Positions 5,596-26,811 of a stretch of DNA of 32,000 bases are shown one piece after another. Location of the stretch: the IMG/VR virus record IMGVR_UViG_3300035670_013237, positions 60,001 through 92,000 of that record; one strand, given 5' to 3'. The DNA is from a virus. Within the stretch, counting starts at the first letter, position 1, and each line of letters begins with the position of its first letter. The notes beneath the pieces were generated by a model that was not told the DNA's origin, made no database searches, and saw nothing but the letters and a program-made list of their open reading frames with translations. Position numbers and translations under genes: made by a program.

Positions 5596-6131
5596 TGGAC
5601 TTTCATGCAAAGTCAGGCAGGAGCCTCAGCGGGCTCTTATCCTCAGTGATCAATGAGAGTGTGAGGTCCGCGAAGCGCGCCTTGCGTGAGCAGGACGAAG
5701 AAGACCCAGGCAAAGAAACACAAAAACCTGCTCCACTGCCTGATGAAGACAAGCAGGCACTGCAGACGGGCGACGTGGACGTCGACGACGTGATCGAGAA
5801 GATGAACACGATAAGGTCCGGGCGCTCTTTCAAGGATGAGAGTGTCAAGGCGAATATGGAGCAGTACGTCAACAAGCTGTCGAAGGCTGAGAAGACCGCA
5901 CTGTTCGCGTTCCTCAAGGCAATCTCACAAATCGTCGTCGCGGAGCTACCCTCCACTGACGCAGTCGACCCATCAGAGAAGCCCTCGAACATCAAGATGG
6001 AGAAGGGGAACCAAGTTCAAAAGAGAACCATCAAACCCAATGTCATCAAAATGGAGACTCCAAAAGTGAGCAAGGGGCCTTCTGCTGAGGACACTTCAGC
6101 TCCTGTGCCTATTTCTCCAAAGAAAAAGTGA
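5595..6131 (+). CDS. hypothetical protein (charged, low complexity)
   Basis: TAATG overlap with the upstream stop; 178-aa ORF; no domain recognised. Confidence 0.55.
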   Translation: MDFHAKSGRSLSGLLSSVINESVRSAKRALREQDEEDPGKETQKPAPLPDEDKQALQTGDVDVDDVIEKMNTIRSGRSFKDESVKANMEQYVNKLSKAEKTALFAFLKAISQIVVAELPSTDAVDPSEKPSNIKMEKGNQVQKRTIKPNVIKMETPKVSKGPSAEDTSAPVPISPKKK

Positions 6132-6161
6132 TTGTCCAGGGTGGCGTGTTTCGTATAAAAT
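6132..6161 (+). promoter_or_regulatory. sigma70-like promoter directly abutting ATG 6168
   Basis: TTGTCC (6132-6137), then TATAAA with a 16-nt spacer or TAAAAT with an 18-nt spacer. Only 6-8 nt remain before the ATG and there is no SD. Confidence 0.4.
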
Positions 6162-6167
6162 AAGCGC

Positions 6168-6401
6168 ATGCACAACAGCTTACTTGAAAAACGCATGGTG
6201 AAGCTTCCACGTGGGGGCGAACTCGAAGTTCAACTAACATCAGCAATTAGCGAAAGAATTAGGCAGCACTTCGGCCTCACAGGAGACCAGGCGATAGAAG
6301 ACGATCATGTGAGAATTTTTTTCTGGGGTGTCGTAAATAAAGCTATTGACGGGGCTGAGAGCGAGGTTAGAGATGGAGGAAGGCGAGAAATTAATAGCTG
6401 A
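6168..6401 (+). CDS. hypothetical protein
   Basis: 77-aa ORF immediately downstream of the promoter-like element. Confidence 0.5.
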   Translation: MHNSLLEKRMVKLPRGGELEVQLTSAISERIRQHFGLTGDQAIEDDHVRIFFWGVVNKAIDGAESEVRDGGRREINS

Positions 6402-9571: not shown

Positions 9572-9587
9572 AATTTTCGTTGTGCTG

Positions 9588-9616
9588 TGCAAAGTTCTCG
9601 TGCGCTGTGTTATCAT
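9588..9616 (+). promoter_or_regulatory. sigma70-like promoter TGCAAA-N17-(TGt)TATCAT, 6 nt before ATG 9623
   Basis: Exact 17-nt spacer and an extended -10 TG; no SD. It lies inside the GTG-9587 extension of the ORF track, which argues for the ATG 9623 start. Confidence 0.5.
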
Positions 9617-9622
9617 TGCTTC

Positions 9623-10201
9623 ATGGAACTTCAACAGGCACAAGAGATAGCACAGCGAATCAGGTCTCAAGTCGAGCGCTCAGCCTCACGTGTTGAAATC
9701 GCAGGCTCAATTCGACGCTTGAAACCCAACGTCAAAGATGTCGAGATCGTTGCAATAGTCCACGATTACGACACACTCTACCGTGAGCTCCGCCACCATG
9801 GCCGCTTCATCAAACCCAGTGTACCTGATATTATTGACTGGAGCTTCAAGCCCGGCGCGAAGTATGTCCGCATGCTCTTGCACGAAGGTGTAAAGCTTGA
9901 CCTCTTCGTGGCTTCTCCTGACAATTGGGGGCCCTTGTACATGATGCGCACTGGAGGCGCCACTGGTCCAGATGGAAATTCATTCAATGGGTTTGTGCCG
10001 GGAATGTTTGCACGTTGGAAGAAACTATCTGGGGGTGGGATGATGACTGGTTGCATGCCCACCACTAAGGATGGCATACAGCTCGCTTGTCCTGAAGAAC
10101 AGGACTTCTTCAATCTTCTTGGAATGGATTTTGTGCCGCCAGAAGAACGGATCGACCGGAAGGTCATCAAAAAGTACATTCGCGGTCCTGTTCATAATTG
10201 A
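9623..10201 (+). CDS. minimal family-X (pol beta-like) DNA polymerase/nucleotidyltransferase
   Basis: AGSIRRLKPNVKDVEIVA matches the GS.RR....DvD.l motif and VKLDLFV carries the third acidic residue. The C-terminal CPEEQDFFNLLGMDFVPPEER matches the pol X thumb end. Size and layout resemble the 174-aa ASFV Pol X. Confidence 0.7.
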   Translation: MELQQAQEIAQRIRSQVERSASRVEIAGSIRRLKPNVKDVEIVAIVHDYDTLYRELRHHGRFIKPSVPDIIDWSFKPGAKYVRMLLHEGVKLDLFVASPDNWGPLYMMRTGGATGPDGNSFNGFVPGMFARWKKLSGGGMMTGCMPTTKDGIQLACPEEQDFFNLLGMDFVPPEERIDRKVIKKYIRGPVHN

Positions 10202-11257: not shown

Positions 11258-11259
11258 AG

Positions 11260-11288
11260 TGCAAATTTCTGGCAACGTGTGGTAAGGT
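11260..11288 (+). promoter_or_regulatory. sigma70-like promoter TGCAAA-N17-(TGg)TAAGGT, 7 nt before ATG 11296
   Basis: Sits directly after the terminator; extended -10 TG present; no SD. Confidence 0.45.
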
Positions 11289-11295
11289 TCGAAAC

Positions 11296-12120
11296 ATGGC
11301 AATACTCTGTATCGATGCAATGAATTTTCTTCACAGGGCTCGGTCAGGCTGGCAGCTTGGTCCTGCGCCTGTCATCTTCAACTTCATGCGCAACTTTCGC
11401 GCAGTGGTTGAGCAGTTCAAGCCCAGCCGGGTATACTTCGTCCTAGAAGGCCGTGCACAACAGCGCCGTGACCTGCTACCTGAGTACAAGGCGAATAGGT
11501 CTGTTGAGGCTGGCTCTAAAGAAGCTGGAGAGCTCGAAAAGTTCTTTGCGCAAGTTAAAGAAATCGTCGGTCTCCTCGAGACCACATTCCCGGTGTCCGT
11601 GGTTCGCCATCCCCGCCATGAATGTGATGACACGATCTACAACTTGGTGAAACGTGGGACCCCTGCGGCGGAGTGGATCGTGGTGTCCAACGACTCAGAT
11701 TTCACGCAGCTCCTCAATGAGTTTTCCCATGTGAAGCTCTGGAACCCCATGAAGAAGGGGTATGTGCCTAAGCCTGACTATGATTACGTTACTTGGAAGT
11801 CGCTGCGCGGGGACGGTTCGGACAATATCCCAGGCATTCCCGGAATCGGTGACCGGACAGCTGAGAATATTGTGGAAGATCCTGATAGGCTGGCGGAGCT
11901 GCTCTCTGACCCAGAGAAGGGTGCCATCTTTGCGAGGAATTACGAGCTCATCAAGTTCATTGAGTGGGACGACAGCACAGCAGCTGAGATGACATGCTCA
12001 CACCCTCAAAAGAATTGGGAGCCCCTGCGCGAGTCTTTTGAGAAGTATTCCTTCAAGTCCCTCTTGAAGGAAGACGCTTGGAAGAAATTTGTGGACACCT
12101 TTGAATCCCTGTGGGGGTAA
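11296..12120 (+). CDS. 5'-3' exonuclease / flap endonuclease (PIN-like + H3TH)
   Basis: ILCIDAMNFLHRA, EYKANR, ECDDTIY, VVSNDSDFTQLL and WKSLRGDGSDNIPGIPGIGDRTAENI are the standard 5'-nuclease motifs. Confidence 0.85.
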   Translation: MAILCIDAMNFLHRARSGWQLGPAPVIFNFMRNFRAVVEQFKPSRVYFVLEGRAQQRRDLLPEYKANRSVEAGSKEAGELEKFFAQVKEIVGLLETTFPVSVVRHPRHECDDTIYNLVKRGTPAAEWIVVSNDSDFTQLLNEFSHVKLWNPMKKGYVPKPDYDYVTWKSLRGDGSDNIPGIPGIGDRTAENIVEDPDRLAELLSDPEKGAIFARNYELIKFIEWDDSTAAEMTCSHPQKNWEPLRESFEKYSFKSLLKEDAWKKFVDTFESLWG

Positions 12121-21311: not shown

Positions 21312-22247
21312 ATGATGCTAGGCGTTTGTTGTCATTGGCTAGAAGAACGTGTGAAGCCCAAGGGCAAAGTCGAAGTTGTGAATGCGATGGACGAGCGTGT
21401 CCTGCAGCTCGGCCGCTACAGAGACGGGAAGTACTCGCATGAGCAGATCATGTCGACGTACGTCAATAACGCGACGAATCTCGCGAACATGTTACCCAAG
21501 ATCGCGGGGCACGGTGTCAGGCTGTTTCGCATCTCTTCCGCGCTATTTCCTCTCGCGGACCAGGTCGATCGATCCTTGTGGGACAACGACACCGTGCGGG
21601 GAATCCTCCGTGGTGCTGGCGACTTCATCAGGCAAAATGGTATGCGTGTCTCCACACACCCAGGCCAGTTCTGCGTTCTATCATCTGACACTGACAAGGT
21701 AATTGAGAACGCTATCAACGAGCTCAACCTACATGCATGGCTCTTCGACACCATGGGTCTTGACCACTCCCCTCAATATGCCATCAACATCCACGGGGGC
21801 AAGTCAGACCGTGCATCCCGGCTCATCGAGCAGATCAAGTCCCTGCCTGACAGCACACGCAAGCGTCTCACTCTCGAGAACGACGAGACAGCATACTCTC
21901 TCCTCGATCTCCTCGAAGTCCACAAAGAAACCGGGACACCGCTTGTGTGGGACTCCCACCACCACACCTTCAATGACGGTGACCTGACGATGGAAGAAGC
22001 TATGGGACTCGCTTCCGCCACATGGCCTGATGGCATCAAACCCTTGCAACACATCAGCAACACTGAACCCCACTTTATGTCGGGCGGCTCATTCACCGAG
22101 CGCCGCAAACACTCCGACCTAATTCACTACGTGCCAGAGCCCCAGCTCTCAGCACTTCGGGATGGAACGGTCGACTGTGAAGTCGAGGCGAAGCTGAAGA
22201 ATGTATCAGTCTTCAAGATGGCGAAAGATTTCGAAATTCCGATTTGA
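21312..22247 (+). CDS. uvdE: UV-damage endonuclease (UvdE family)
   Basis: STHPGQFCVLSS, INIHGG, LTLENDE and VWDSHHH are the TIM-barrel metal-site motifs of UVDE. Confidence 0.85.
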   Translation: MMLGVCCHWLEERVKPKGKVEVVNAMDERVLQLGRYRDGKYSHEQIMSTYVNNATNLANMLPKIAGHGVRLFRISSALFPLADQVDRSLWDNDTVRGILRGAGDFIRQNGMRVSTHPGQFCVLSSDTDKVIENAINELNLHAWLFDTMGLDHSPQYAINIHGGKSDRASRLIEQIKSLPDSTRKRLTLENDETAYSLLDLLEVHKETGTPLVWDSHHHTFNDGDLTMEEAMGLASATWPDGIKPLQHISNTEPHFMSGGSFTERRKHSDLIHYVPEPQLSALRDGTVDCEVEAKLKNVSVFKMAKDFEIPI

Positions 22248-22257
22248 AGGATTAGAT

Positions 22258-22503
22258 ATGGAGGGGGTTGACATGGTGGCAGTCACTGAATTTCAGGTCC
22301 ACATTTCCCAACAGGAAGAGTTCGAGAATTGTGCCTCTGCAGTGTTCGACTACACAGAGCAGCGCCTGATGCGCTATGTGAAGCTCATCAGCGACCGTCA
22401 GCAGAAGCAGGCACTCAATGATCTCCTCGAGAAATATAGGAAGGGCCGGGTCGCAATCTGCTGGAAGGGTGGTAATCCCTCTTGGCTTGATTTGGACATT
22501 TGA
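22258..22503 (+). CDS. hypothetical protein
   Basis: GAAGGA SD before ATG 22258; 81 aa; not GroES-like. Confidence 0.5.
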   Translation: MEGVDMVAVTEFQVHISQQEEFENCASAVFDYTEQRLMRYVKLISDRQQKQALNDLLEKYRKGRVAICWKGGNPSWLDLDI

Positions 22504-22508
22504 ATGAA

Positions 22509-22537
22509 TTGAACATTTTCACGGATCATTGTATGTT
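22509..22537 (+). promoter_or_regulatory. sigma70-like promoter TTGAAC-N17-TATGTT, 6 nt before the groEL ATG
   Basis: Exact 17-nt spacer; no SD between the -10 and ATG 22544. Confidence 0.5.
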
Positions 22538-22543
22538 TTGTGC

Positions 22544-24142
22544 ATGAGCGAGAGCACAACACAAGTCCTATTCAAAAATGACGCCCGCCGCCAATTGTTC
22601 GTGGGCATGGAGATCGCTGCTGAGGCGGTGTCCACGACCCTTGGCCCAAAGGGTAAGACTGTCCTGATCCAACGTAAGGGTGAAGCGCCTATTGTCACGA
22701 AGGATGGCGTGACTGTGAGCAAGTCAATAAGGTTGCGCGATCCTGTGCAACGCATGGGTGCCGAGCTCATCCGCGAGGCTGCTGCACAGACAAATGAGAT
22801 CGCAGGAGATGGCACGACGACTGCGACTGTCCTCACGCACGCCATGGTGAAAGAGGGACTGAAGCTCCTCGAGGCCGGATATCCCGCGAAAGAACTATGC
22901 AAGGGCATTGAATTAGCGAGGGCCCGTGTGGATGAGAACCTTGCTGCTCTTGCGAAGCGCCTCACAACTGCTGAAGAGATTGCACAAGTGGGCACGATTT
23001 CGGCTAACGGTGACCGTAAGATCGGTGACCTCATTGCAGCAGCAATGGACAAGGTGGGCCGCGATGGCATCATCACGGTGGAAGATGCAAAGGGCATGGC
23101 GACTACCCTCGAGGTCGTCGAGGGCATGCAATTCGATCGCGGTTATCTTTCTCCTTACTTCGTCACCAACCAAGACCGCATGAGCGTCAACTATAATGAC
23201 GCTAGGGTCCTTCTGACTGATAAGAAGCTAAATAACCTAAGAGAATTAGTGCCAATTCTTGAGAAGGTGATGCAAGGCCGCCAGCCCCTCATCATCATCG
23301 CAGAGGACGTCGAAGGTGAAGCTCTACAGGGCCTCGTGCTCAACAGAGTCAATGCGAACCTGCCCGTCGTGGCGGTCAAGGCGCCTGGATATGGACAGCA
23401 TCGGCATGACCTACTCACAGACATCTCAACTCTGACAGGCGCGAAGCTCGTGTCAGCCTCAACAGGACTCAAGTTGGAATCTCTCACCTTGCAGGATCTT
23501 GGCACCCTGAAGCGTGTGGTGGTCGATGCTAAATCGACGACTCTCGTGGGAACAGGGTCAACAAAGTCAAGCGTTGAGGCTCATGTGGAGAACCTCCGCA
23601 CACAGCTTCAAGATGTGACCCTCACGGTCGACGACGTCACGAAGCTGAAGGTGCGAATTGCGAAACTGGCGAGCGGTGTCGCGGTCATTCGCGTGGGCGG
23701 GGCGACAGAGGTCGAGATGATCGAACGCAAGTATAGAATTGAAGATGCCCTCAATGCTACTCGTGCTGCTGCGGAGGAGGGCATCGTGCCCGGCGGCGGC
23801 ATGGCACTTGCTACAATCACGAGCACAATAGATCTTTCTGCTGACTTGCCGCAAGAAGAAGCCATGGGAGCTTCAATCATCACACGAGCATGCCTTGCAC
23901 CGCTGAAGAGGATCTCGCAGAACGCAGGAGTAACACCAGAGGTAATCCTCAGTGAACTCCAGCGAAACCCAGGTAAGGGCTACAACGCCGCGACAGGCGA
24001 GTATGTCGATCTCATCGCGGCCGGTGTCATCGATCCTGTCAAGGTGACACGGACGGCCTTGAAAAACGCTGCCTCAGTTGCCACGACATTCTTGTCTCTT
24101 GATGCAGTCGTCTTTGATGAGGAGGGACAGGCGGGTGAGTAA
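22544..24142 (+). CDS. groEL: GroEL (Cpn60) chaperonin
   Basis: Near-canonical LGPKGKTVLI, PIVTKDGVTVSK, AGDGTTTATVLTHA and VAVKAPGYG motifs along the full length. ATG 22544 gives an MSESTTQVLF N-terminus. The protein ends ...EEGQAGE without a GGM tail. Confidence 0.95.
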   Translation: MSESTTQVLFKNDARRQLFVGMEIAAEAVSTTLGPKGKTVLIQRKGEAPIVTKDGVTVSKSIRLRDPVQRMGAELIREAAAQTNEIAGDGTTTATVLTHAMVKEGLKLLEAGYPAKELCKGIELARARVDENLAALAKRLTTAEEIAQVGTISANGDRKIGDLIAAAMDKVGRDGIITVEDAKGMATTLEVVEGMQFDRGYLSPYFVTNQDRMSVNYNDARVLLTDKKLNNLRELVPILEKVMQGRQPLIIIAEDVEGEALQGLVLNRVNANLPVVAVKAPGYGQHRHDLLTDISTLTGAKLVSASTGLKLESLTLQDLGTLKRVVVDAKSTTLVGTGSTKSSVEAHVENLRTQLQDVTLTVDDVTKLKVRIAKLASGVAVIRVGGATEVEMIERKYRIEDALNATRAAAEEGIVPGGGMALATITSTIDLSADLPQEEAMGASIITRACLAPLKRISQNAGVTPEVILSELQRNPGKGYNAATGEYVDLIAAGVIDPVKVTRTALKNAASVATTFLSLDAVVFDEEGQAGE

Positions 24143-24985: not shown

Positions 24986-25199
24986 CCTTGTCTACTTAAC
25001 CTGGAGCACCTGCGGCACAATACATGATCCTGCAAATCCGCTTCAAGCGCATTATCTCTGGCTCAATAAGGGCCAATACGGAATGATCGTGGGAGGTCTT
25101 GGGCACCCGTCTAAGGAAACGCGGGGTGAAATTGAAATGCTGACTTTCATTGAGGGTAAATTGATCTGGGTCGAGTGCGACTGCCTGGAGCTCTTATGA
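24975..25199 (+). CDS. small protein of the PGD/SH3-like paralog family
   Basis: ATG 24975 gives MPGDLVYLTWSTCG and overlaps the upstream stop by 11 nt. Confidence 0.55.
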   Translation: MPGDLVYLTWSTCGTIHDPANPLQAHYLWLNKGQYGMIVGGLGHPSKETRGEIEMLTFIEGKLIWVECDCLELL

Positions 25200-25409
25200 C
25201 ATGTCAGCGATGATCTCTTGAATGAGCTCTCTCAGCGCGGCATGATCCACGCTCTCAGCCTCGATCGCCGCTATCTGCCCTTGGGCACCCTTCCGTGATG
25301 TGTGGCAGTTGCGGTGTTTCTTGCCCTTCTTGTCTTTGTACGATAGGACATAGCTGCCCCTGTCGCCGTCTGATTGCTTACACTTTTGTTTGCGAATTGT
25401 GTATGGCAT
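25194..25409 (-). CDS. small basic hypothetical protein
   Basis: 71-aa ORF on the opposite strand. Lys-rich N-terminal half with CK...CH; the C-terminus ALRELIQEIIADMS resembles the shared leader motif. Confidence 0.5.
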   Translation of the reverse strand: MPYTIRKQKCKQSDGDRGSYVLSYKDKKGKKHRNCHTSRKGAQGQIAAIEAESVDHAALRELIQEIIADMS

Positions 25410-25430
25410 GCTTTTACCCTGTAGATGTTG

Positions 25431-25459
25431 TGCAGTATAAATTATGTTCTAGGCATAAT
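25431..25459 (+). promoter_or_regulatory. sigma70-like promoter TGCAGT-N17-CATAAT, 7 nt before ATG 25467
   Basis: Lies in the divergent intergenic region; no SD. Confidence 0.4.
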
Positions 25460-25466
25460 TAGTTCC

Positions 25467-25703
25467 ATGAGAATGACGATTGCTGAGCTCAGGCAGATAG
25501 TGCGAGAAGAAGTTGAGCGCAACAATCGTTGGCTCGCGGGATTTTTTATCGGCGGGGGAATTAGCGGGGGTCGCAAAGGAACGATCACACCTCCCCTCGG
25601 CTTGGGGACAGAAGAAGAACAAGAACACCATGGCGAAGAACAACAAGAAGAACCAAGGCAGGCAGGAGAAGAGCGGTGGGCGAGAGCGGGAAGACGCCGT
25701 TGA
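25467..25703 (+). CDS. small protein, strict member of the N-terminal leader family
   Basis: Starts [20 protein letters not shown]. The 3' 74 nt overlap infA in another frame within a purine-rich tract, so the true stop is uncertain. Confidence 0.5.
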
Positions 25704-25899
25704 ACTCAATGGCACAGTCGACGAGGCCCTACCCGGGACCTTTTTTAGGGTCATATGCGAGGGCGGTCACACGGTGCTCGCTACACTCTCAGGCAAATTG
25801 AGAATGAATCACATCAAGGTGCTTCCAGGTGACTCGGTCACTGTCGAGGTCTCACCTTACGATTTAACGCGGGGAAGGATTTGTTGGCGTAAGGCTTGA
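25630..25899 (+). CDS. infA: translation initiation factor IF-1 homolog with a basic N-terminal extension
   Basis: [63 protein letters not shown] aligns residue by residue with bacterial IF-1 (S1-like OB fold). It is preceded by [24 protein letters not shown]. Confidence 0.9.
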
Positions 25900-26017
25900 G
25901 CCTGTGACGTGCAAAATCGAGAGATAAGAGGTGATACTTGAGCCCAAGTCGGCGCATGCCTAGCAATAAGCAGAACTTCGACGCGAAGAAATAAAATCCG
26001 TGCTTCGTCTTACGCAT
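25838..26017 (-). CDS. possible 59-aa basic ORF below the ORF-track cutoff
   Basis: AGGAGG SD 7 nt upstream of ATG 26017 (hand translation [25 protein letters not shown]...). The last 62 nt are antisense to the infA 3' end. Confidence 0.25.
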
Positions 26018-26496: not shown

Positions 26497-26811
26497 ATGA
26501 AAATAACAATAGGAAACCTCAGGCAAATTATTAGAAAATCTCTCAGTGAGGCCGGGGGTGCCCGTCCGAGCCGTCCGCAGCCTTATACAAGGAATGCAAT
26601 GGCACCTGACCTCGCTGACCGCGTGGCCATTGGCCGTCTTGAGACGGGGGAACCTGAAGAGGAAGAGCTACCCCCACACCTGAGAGAGCCCGTTGTTGAT
26701 TTCGAGGATTGCTATGGGCCAGTGCCTCCCATCGCGGGAGATCCTTATGTCGGGCAGGATCCCTTTGCACGTGACTATTCTCCCCTGCCCACGCCTGCGA
26801 TCAAGCGCTAA
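26497..26811 (+). CDS. hypothetical protein, strict member of the N-terminal leader family
   Basis: Starts MKITIGNLRQIIRKSLSEAGG; Pro-rich remainder. Confidence 0.6.
   Translation: MKITIGNLRQIIRKSLSEAGGARPSRPQPYTRNAMAPDLADRVAIGRLETGEPEEEELPPHLREPVVDFEDCYGPVPPIAGDPYVGQDPFARDYSPLPTPAIKR

Follow-up and report, generated by a model that had tools for sequence, protein, structure and literature searches.

Why would a phage carry a translation initiation factor of its own, and what might the extra residues at the start of that factor do? The question is raised by infA, a gene at 25630..25899 on the plus strand of a 32,000-nucleotide stretch of viral DNA (positions 60,001 to 92,000 of IMG/VR record IMGVR_UViG_3300035670_013237), referred to here in its full length as the window. 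The gene encodes a homologue of bacterial initiation factor IF-1 that bears a basic N-terminal tail. As read from sequence, what is new here is a virus-only clade of such tailed IF-1 proteins, a dual-coding overlap at the start of the gene, and leaderless-type promoters throughout the phage lineage; the function of the tail is one that we infer.

A tailed IF-1 and its viral clade

By direct reading of the sequence, the infA open reading frame (ORF) runs from an ATG at 25630 to a TGA stop ending at 25899 and specifies 89 amino acids. The product matched Pfam family PF01176 at 81.3 bits (cut-off, 30.2) and the NCBIfam equivalog model for infA, TIGR00008, at 92.9 bits (cut-off, 61.15), with model positions 1 to 69 of 69 covered. 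IF-1 chains in the PDB were matched at E values of 1e-19 to 1e-25. Identity to Escherichia coli IF-1 was ∼57% over 69 residues, window residue 20 corresponding to E. coli residue 3. The S1-like oligonucleotide/oligosaccharide-binding (OB) fold core thus defined by TIGR00008 spans residues 20 to 88 (25687..25893, plus strand). In an AlphaFold2 (AF2) model built on 31 relatives, this core had a predicted local distance difference test (pLDDT) score above 90, with five strands (residues 24-34, 38-43, 48-53, 69-74, and 81-88) and a short helix (55-59). The chain stopped one residue past the last OB strand, and no helical subdomain followed the fold. Residues K56, R58, Y77, D78, G82, R83, and R87 were invariant in both the viral clade described below and the cellular set; they correspond to E. 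coli K39, R41, Y60, D61, G65, R66, and R70, which we take to be contacts with the 30S subunit. Relative to the cellular set, the clade core had Gly in place of E. coli N19 and Thr in place of H35, and conservation of N28 and H30 was lost. The window gene is a functional-looking copy of bacterial IF-1 from an old lineage restricted to large phages.

Trees were built on the IF-1 core only, an alignment of ∼70 columns that is too short to resolve deep branches. In a quick tree, the tail-bearing group comprised 26 rows, all of them viral, with a Shimodaira-Hasegawa-like approximate likelihood-ratio test (SH-aLRT) value of 95. In a more careful tree, 23 tail-bearing rows made up one side of a branch (ultrafast bootstrap [UFBoot], 75; SH-aLRT, 97), and the enclosing set of 26 rows, consisting of these 23 and three other viral sequences, was likewise all viral (98/82). 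No cellular sequence fell inside the tail-bearing group in these core trees. The top matches in GTDB came from Clostridia, at 68 to 69% identity over the core only, and neither the tail nor membership in the clade was found in any of the 80 best GTDB genome matches. Among GenBank phages, no member of the tailed clade was detected. A recent copy of a host gene was rejected on the two core trees and the GTDB scan. On this evidence, tailed IF-1 is a virus-only clade and not a recent acquisition from a host.

The record from which the window is taken is a 160-kb IMG/VR entry with an estimated completeness of 44% and the label "provirus." Neighbors of infA include genes for a virion structural protein, nucleases, and GroEL, and the order conserved 100-amino-acid ORF, GroEL, small ORFs, a small ORF that we call the tag ORF, infA, and 104-amino-acid ORF recurred in ∼25 viral contigs. 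Two relatives with the gene order of the window are complete genomes of 369 kb and 298 kb with direct terminal repeats. The database label would fit a host infA with a mis-annotated start inside a mis-called provirus. This reading is already contradicted by the synteny with the complete 298- to 369-kb terminal-repeat phage genomes, by the virus-only clade, and by the phage neighbors; no GTDB genome matched the tail, and the gene has no downstream start codon. We regard it as extremely improbable.

A preliminary description of this DNA had called the gene virus-encoded, had aligned its OB core almost collinearly with bacterial IF-1, and had proposed a phylogeny of that core as a check. The first point is borne out by the gene order shared with the complete 298-kb and 369-kb phage genomes, and the second by the PF01176 and TIGR00008 matches and the E. 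coli alignment. The phylogeny yielded a virus-only clade, so the objection foreseen in that description, a recent copy of the host gene, fails.

The basic tail and the frame that overlaps it

Relative to cellular IF-1, the window protein has 17 extra N-terminal residues, with 27 residues ahead of a conserved Gly in strand 1 where the cellular factor has 10. This tail (codons 1 to 17; 25630..25680, plus strand) contains four Lys, three Asn, three Gly, two Gln, one Arg, and one Glu, for a net charge of +4. Its basic residues are K3, K6, K7, R11, and K14, followed by a Gly pair (G16-G17) and by R18, which lies just past the 17-residue stretch. Residues 1 to 19 were unstructured in the AF2 model, with pLDDT below 50. 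Since no in-frame ATG, GTG, or TTG was found between 25630 and the OB core, the tail is obligatory and cannot be skipped. The longer, charged N terminus of the preliminary description is thereby confirmed, in both its net charge of +4 and the lack of a downstream start that would bypass it. The extent and composition given there require correction: alignment and the count to the conserved Gly give 17 residues instead of 20 to 25, and the stretch described as rich in Lys, Arg, and Glu is rich in Lys, Asn, Gln, and Gly, the "RERED" part belonging to a segment that cellular IF-1 also has.

The position of the start codon separates the viral genes from their cellular counterparts. Among 76 IF-1 genes of GTDB species genomes, the start lay 10 residues before the conserved Gly in almost all, whereas the window gene and most of its ∼25 viral counterparts offered no usable start closer to that Gly than 18 to 29 residues. 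A database search returned a family of IF-1 proteins of 80 to 100 amino acids, all beginning M-[AS]-K-N/K-K-K. This beginning was conserved in 31 relatives, whose tails comprised 9 to 28 extra residues with a median net charge of +3; Lys made up 22% and Asn 15% of the tail residues, and the net charge was positive in 30 of the 31 tails. In relatives with 74 to 84% whole-protein identity to the window IF-1, the first 12 residues were identical. A protein identical to the window IF-1 is encoded on a 271-kb contig. The middle of the tail varied among relatives.

Directly upstream of infA, in the window and in at least 14 related loci, lies the tag ORF (25467..25703, plus strand; 78 amino acids), which overlaps the start of infA by 74 nt. 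Its product begins with a predicted helix motif, M-R/K-x-T-I-x-x-L-R-x-I-I/V, that is common to many small proteins of the window genome, and continues with a Gly-rich middle, an RN.RW.AGFFGG-type motif, a PPGLG-type motif (PPLGLG in the window), and an acidic tail. Pfam and PHROGs gave no match to it. In every related locus that has the tag ORF, it overlaps the infA ATG in the same relative frame, by 14 to 116 nt.

Other extended or unusual N termini were also seen. In a sub-lineage comprising L020 (infA at 5893-6216) and L028/L029, 45 to 48 residues precede the conserved Gly, forming an acidic and then a basic segment, and no tag ORF overlaps the infA start. The IF-1 proteins of viral loci L054 and L030/L036 carry extended, basic N termini as well. 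Among cellular genes, infA of L086, L097, L098, L104, and L114 (contigs from Miltoncostaeales and related metagenome-assembled genomes) lacks an ATG, GTG, or TTG at the common distance of 10 codons ahead of the Gly, and the first usual start codon met in the upstream direction is 20 to 40 codons away or missing. These genes may have an unusual start codon or a longer N terminus.

The DNA of the overlap is (GAA)n-like, and it is read as acidic, Glu-rich sequence in the tag ORF frame and as Lys/Asn-rich sequence in the infA frame. Within the overlap, the tag ORF frame contains an EQEK.Q.G.RV.DR motif that is conserved in seven loci. To judge by the two frames, the tail is partly shaped by dual coding with the upstream ORF. 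The locus might then hold a plain auxiliary IF-1 that boosts the supply of the factor, with a tail that is a functionless by-product of the purine-rich, dual-coding start region. We consider this rather unlikely, although it deserves serious attention. It accounts for the two readings of the same DNA and for the motif of the upstream frame, and it suits a tail that is disordered and variable in its middle. Substitutions in the overlap divide on the matter: the L003/L017 pair (0 synonymous and 10 nonsynonymous changes in the infA frame, 7 and 5 in the upstream frame) favors the upstream frame, whereas the L168/L170 pair (3 and 1 in infA, 0 and 4 upstream) favors infA. A metagenome scan for close relatives in which to compare nonsynonymous and synonymous rates in the overlap found none above 64% identity, and the few sister pairs that could be counted disagreed. 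Against a mere by-product, the K-rich infA start is kept even where the overlap is reduced to 14 to 23 nt (L014, L021/23, and L027), L020 and L028 keep the extension in the absence of any overlapping tag ORF, the positive charge is nearly universal among the tails, and basic tails recur in unrelated phage IF-1 proteins.

The conservation of the overlap and relative frame in ∼24 loci could also reflect a pairing of the two products, either through binding of the acidic tail of the tag protein to the basic tail of IF-1, which would carry the factor to wherever the tag leads, or through a +1 frameshift that yields a tag-IF-1 fusion. An acidic tail does stand opposite a basic one, the IF-1 of L020/L028 joins an acidic and a basic segment in one polypeptide, and the tag is present on many small proteins of the window genome. 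A +1 frameshift fusion is unlikely, however, because the ATG and the K-rich motif, both needless for a product made by frameshifting only, are retained in 23 of 25 loci, no slippery site was found to be conserved, and no fused tag-IF-1 was found among longer database proteins (weak evidence; the single match was a mis-called Firmicutes gene). The frame relation may, moreover, be merely inherited. Taken as a whole, the pairing is highly improbable in our estimation.

The context of the infA start is itself distinctive. The ATG lies in a purine-rich (∼80%), weakly structured tract (25610..25694, plus strand) with no Shine-Dalgarno (SD) site at −5 to −12. Across 20 loci, the corresponding tract was 66 to 80% purine, and most loci lacked an SD site at these positions. 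The predicted minimum free energy around the start was −13.3 kcal/mol per 100 nt, with the ATG unpaired, compared to −28.3 for the preceding 100 nt. Because infA has no SD site and starts within the terminal part of the upstream ORF, in purine-rich sequence predicted to be unstructured, ribosomes probably reach it by coupling or by SD-independent entry. infA itself is not leaderless; it is the overlapped second cistron of an operon whose mRNA is probably leaderless.

Promoter-abutting start codons and a proposed role for the tail

Upstream of the tag ORF, a promoter-like element, GTGCAG-N18-CATAAT (25430..25459, plus strand), ends 7 nt before the ATG; it is the sole match in the window, with 0.06 expected by chance, and it conforms to the promoter type found genome-wide. 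Where relatives have a tag ORF, its start is in most cases preceded, at 7 nt, by a −10-like hexamer. A similar arrangement was read at the GroEL-like chaperonin gene (22544..24142, plus strand; PF00118, 245 bits; phrog_5725), where TTGAAC-N17-TATGTT-N6-ATG (22509..22546, plus strand) places a leaderless-type promoter at ATG 22544. Neither the tag ORF nor the GroEL start in the window has an SD site, and most of the 24 related loci checked have a TAnnnT hexamer 6 to 8 nt before the GroEL start and no SD site there. Leaderless-type promoters also precede a 192-amino-acid ORF with its ATG at 9623 (GTGCAA-N18-TATCAT-N6-ATG; 9587..9625, plus strand), found by a promoter pattern scan, and a 274-amino-acid exonuclease/flap endonuclease (FEN) gene, identified by phrog_107, with its ATG at 11296 (GTGCAA-N18-TAAGGT-N7-ATG; 11259..11298, plus strand).

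In the 160-kb record, the pattern GT[AG]CA[AG]-N16-18-TAnnnT occurred 25 times, compared to 12 in shuffles. At 8 of these 25 promoter-like sites, the ATG of an ORF of at least 40 amino acids followed 6 to 7 nt after the hexamer; 200 shuffles gave a mean of 0.035 and a maximum of 1. Five genomes were then counted, comprising the window record and four relatives (G000 to G004, in that order). The pattern followed by an ATG at spacing 6 was present at 7, 11, 8, 32, and 21 sites, respectively, with 0, 1, 0, 1, and 2 sites for a reversed-pattern control and 0, 0, 0, 0, and 1 for a control at spacing 10. Across the five genomes, an ATG thus lay exactly 6 nt past the −10 hexamer at 79 sites, versus 1 at spacing 10 and 4 with the pattern reversed. 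All convincing promoter-abutting cases begin with ATG. The signal appeared only when the phage-specific −35 box was required; genome-wide, any TATAAT-like hexamer next to any ATG showed no enrichment. A different promoter definition (GTGCA[AG]-N17-NAnnnT) was tried and set aside; it gave few sites, the usual spacing being 18.

At the spacing-6 sites, TG often precedes the −10 hexamer, and the context of the ATG is often RRACC-ATG. A related element, GTGCAA-N18-GATACT, lies directly after the infA stop (25909-25944), with only a 12-codon frame behind it and a hairpin at 25976-25988; candidate functions are those of an orphan promoter, a small RNA, or a regulatory element.

An ATG exactly 6 nt past a −10 hexamer in dozens of genes implies many leaderless mRNAs. 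These data suggest that leaderless mRNAs, including those of GroEL and the infA operon, are widespread in the phage lineage, with start sites inferred from the spacing. The preliminary description had linked the factor to leaderless viral messages. The 79 spacing-6 sites in five genomes lend that link circumstantial support, but infA itself is not a leaderless gene.

The best explanation of the whole, which we hold tentatively and rate as not quite probable, is that a tailed phage IF-1 aids initiation on phage start sites that lack an SD sequence. In this model, infA would be the second cistron of a short operon transcribed from a phage-type promoter, with 7 nt between its −10 hexamer and the first ATG, and the mRNA would probably be leaderless. 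The phage factor would sit in the ribosomal A site as host IF-1 does, and its tail would emerge from the OB fold where the N-terminal tail (NTT) of eukaryotic eIF1A does, reaching towards the P site and the mRNA channel. The tail could add electrostatic contacts with rRNA, mRNA, or initiator tRNA; such contacts would raise the affinity of the factor and stabilize initiation complexes on SD-less starts, namely those of leaderless and coupled phage genes. According to reviews, IF1 and IF2 stimulate the translation of leaderless mRNA in vitro (PMC9031893), and translational coupling drops upon depletion of IF1, a result interpreted as 70S scanning (PMC12548453). For eIF1A, it is reported that the OB domain occupies the A site like IF1 and that the basic, unstructured NTT runs towards the P site and mRNA channel; the NTT, with five basic residues and a Gly-Gly turn, stabilizes factor binding and favors suboptimal start sites (PMC2731904, PMC5756025). 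A bolder version holds that a jumbo-phage lineage independently rebuilt an eIF1A-like tail on a bacterial IF-1 that licenses SD-less initiation on the phage's leaderless and overlapped or coupled mRNAs, with the factor, a phage sigma/promoter system that begins transcripts at the AUG, and the overlapping upstream gene forming a co-evolved takeover module. This version we find doubtful, if worth pursuing.

Several observations weigh against a role for the tail in SD-less initiation. Both that role and the likeness to eIF1A are matters of analogy, not homology. A phmmer search of the 27-residue N terminus against the PDB found nothing at E values up to 10, eIF1A included, and the a/eIF1A models TIGR00523 and NF003082 scored only 23.5 bits (cut-off, 102.9) and 17.8 bits (cut-off, 108), respectively. 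The partial shaping of the tail by dual coding and the L003/L017 substitutions belong here as well, as does the placing of the leaderless start sites by spacing. Other genes of the window phage, several tag genes included, have ordinary leaders with strong AGGAG SD sites; as far as start contexts indicate, the phage uses both leaderless-type and SD-led starts. Finally, the positions of E. coli N19, H30, and H35, which are near-invariant in cellular IF-1, are changed or relaxed in the clade, and these changes may mean altered rather than enhanced ribosome binding.

The same replaced or relaxed positions can be enlisted for host shut-off, in which tailed IF-1 binds the host 30S subunit too tightly or is released too slowly, so that canonical initiation by the 30S pathway is slowed, and leaderless phage mRNAs that can start on 70S ribosomes escape. 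Leaderless-type genes are indeed abundant, and a more positively charged factor should bind RNA more tightly. However, the many phage genes with strong AGGAG sites, including several tag genes, would be inhibited too, and reviews describe IF1 as a stimulator of leaderless and coupled initiation, not as a block to it (PMC9031893, PMC12548453). We therefore think shut-off unlikely. Still less can be said for recruitment of the protein away from initiation as an RNA chaperone or general RNA-binding OB protein, with the basic tail as a non-specific RNA clamp. An S1-like OB fold joined to a basic, disordered tail would suit such a use, IF-1 has RNA-chaperone activity, and the loop around E. coli N28-H30 is relaxed in the clade. 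Yet the core is 57 to 69% identical to cellular IF-1 and keeps all invariant basic and aromatic positions, which would be unexpected after loss of the ribosomal role, and we judge this recruitment very unlikely.

Tail-assisted initiation would operate in a genome whose other translation-related genes appear few. No infC, S21, or peptide deformylase gene was found in the 160-kb record, and no infC or S21 gene was found in the relatives checked (five genomes). IF-1 is the only initiation-related gene carried, among infC, S21, and peptide deformylase as the genes searched for; IF-2 was not searched. Two tRNA genes are present in the record, for Lys (anticodon ttt; 131689-131764) and Gln (anticodon ttg; 147694-147764).

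Other neighbors of infA are also conserved. The GroEL of the window is syntenic and 47 to 75% identical in 24 related loci. Directly upstream of it in 24 related loci is the conserved 100-amino-acid ORF (22201-22503 in the window), in which Pfam detected no GroES/Cpn10 domain; GroES of the host, or else a novel protein, may be the partner of the phage chaperonin. On the 3′ side of infA, the conserved 104-amino-acid ORF (26497..26811, plus strand) bears the tag motif and was found by tblastn in 19 related loci. Between GroEL and the tag ORF, a basic 71-amino-acid ORF on the minus strand (25194-25409) is 63 to 68% identical to ORFs in seven related loci that precede GroEL and are read from the infA strand. 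This difference in strand and place points to a local inversion or rearrangement in the window phage.

Comparison with known systems

Huge phages are known to carry IF1, IF3, S1, and S21, by which they may turn the host ribosome to their own messages. The locus described here offers a testable pairing of a virus-only tailed IF-1 lineage with dozens of promoter-abutting start codons per genome. If the tail does shift start-site preference, it would be a parallel in the bacterial world to the eIF1A NTT and would offer a simple means to adjust leaderless or coupled translation.

Bacterial IF-1 (E. coli, 1AH9; Thermus thermophilus 30S-IF1 complex, 1HR0) has the same S1-like OB fold, and the phage protein keeps its invariant Lys, Arg, Tyr, and Gly residues, with a core ∼57% identical to that of E. 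coli and up to 69% identical to those of Clostridia. The phage form differs in its 17 extra disordered basic residues, in the substitution of N19 by Gly and of H35 by Thr, and in the unconserved H30/N28 positions. In contrast to bacterial infA, the phage gene lies outside the ribosomal-protein operon and near a phage GroEL, has no SD site, and has a start overlapped by another ORF.

IF-1 genes on phages as such are not new, and in this respect the virus-encoded factor of the preliminary description had precedents. Al-Shayeb et al. (2020, PMC7162821) listed IF1 and IF3 among the genes of huge phages; the basic N-terminal extensions that they described belong to phage S21 and not to IF1. An IF-1A-type gene is also listed among the core genes of Jug phages (PMC12880540). 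Like the window gene, the IF1 genes of these phages (including Lak, LR756511, and Jug) are carried on genomes above 200 kb and are thought to redirect host translation. Where checked, however, huge-phage IF1 was of standard length, with 72 amino acids in LR756511 and Lak matches that cover residues 20 to 87 only. A full-text literature search found no paper on a basic N-terminal tail of phage IF-1 or on a link to leaderless genes. Phage S21 resembles the tailed IF-1 in being a small initiation-related ribosome ligand with a basic/aromatic N-terminal extension, which was proposed to bind RNA (Al-Shayeb et al. 2020, PMC7162821). S21 is another protein, with a ribosomal site of its own, and no S21 gene is present in the five genomes of the window lineage.

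A further analogy is with eIF1A/aIF1A. The OB domain of eIF1A shares the A-site position of IF1 and is preceded by a disordered tail of ∼25 to 30 residues with spaced Lys/Arg residues and a Gly-Gly pair ahead of the OB fold. The phage tail is of similar length, lies at the same end of the OB fold, and likewise combines spaced basic residues with a Gly-Gly pair. Unlike a/eIF1A, the phage protein has no helical subdomain and no C-terminal tail, which in eukaryotes is acidic, and its core is clearly bacterial.

A second tailed phage IF-1 is found in the Bacteroides phage DAC16. DAC16_4 (MT074137; L162, 627-932), annotated as a hypothetical protein, is a 101-amino-acid IF-1 homologue with ∼29 extra basic N-terminal residues, and 26 nt at its 5′ end are shared with the upstream gene. 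The same IF-1 gene is present in the sister phages DAC19/20/22/23 and SJC03. At only ∼39% identity to the window IF-1, DAC16_4 is placed on a long branch that is not part of the tail-bearing clade, which makes an independent origin of its tail probable. Since DAC16 is cultured, its analogous tailed IF-1 makes experiments possible.

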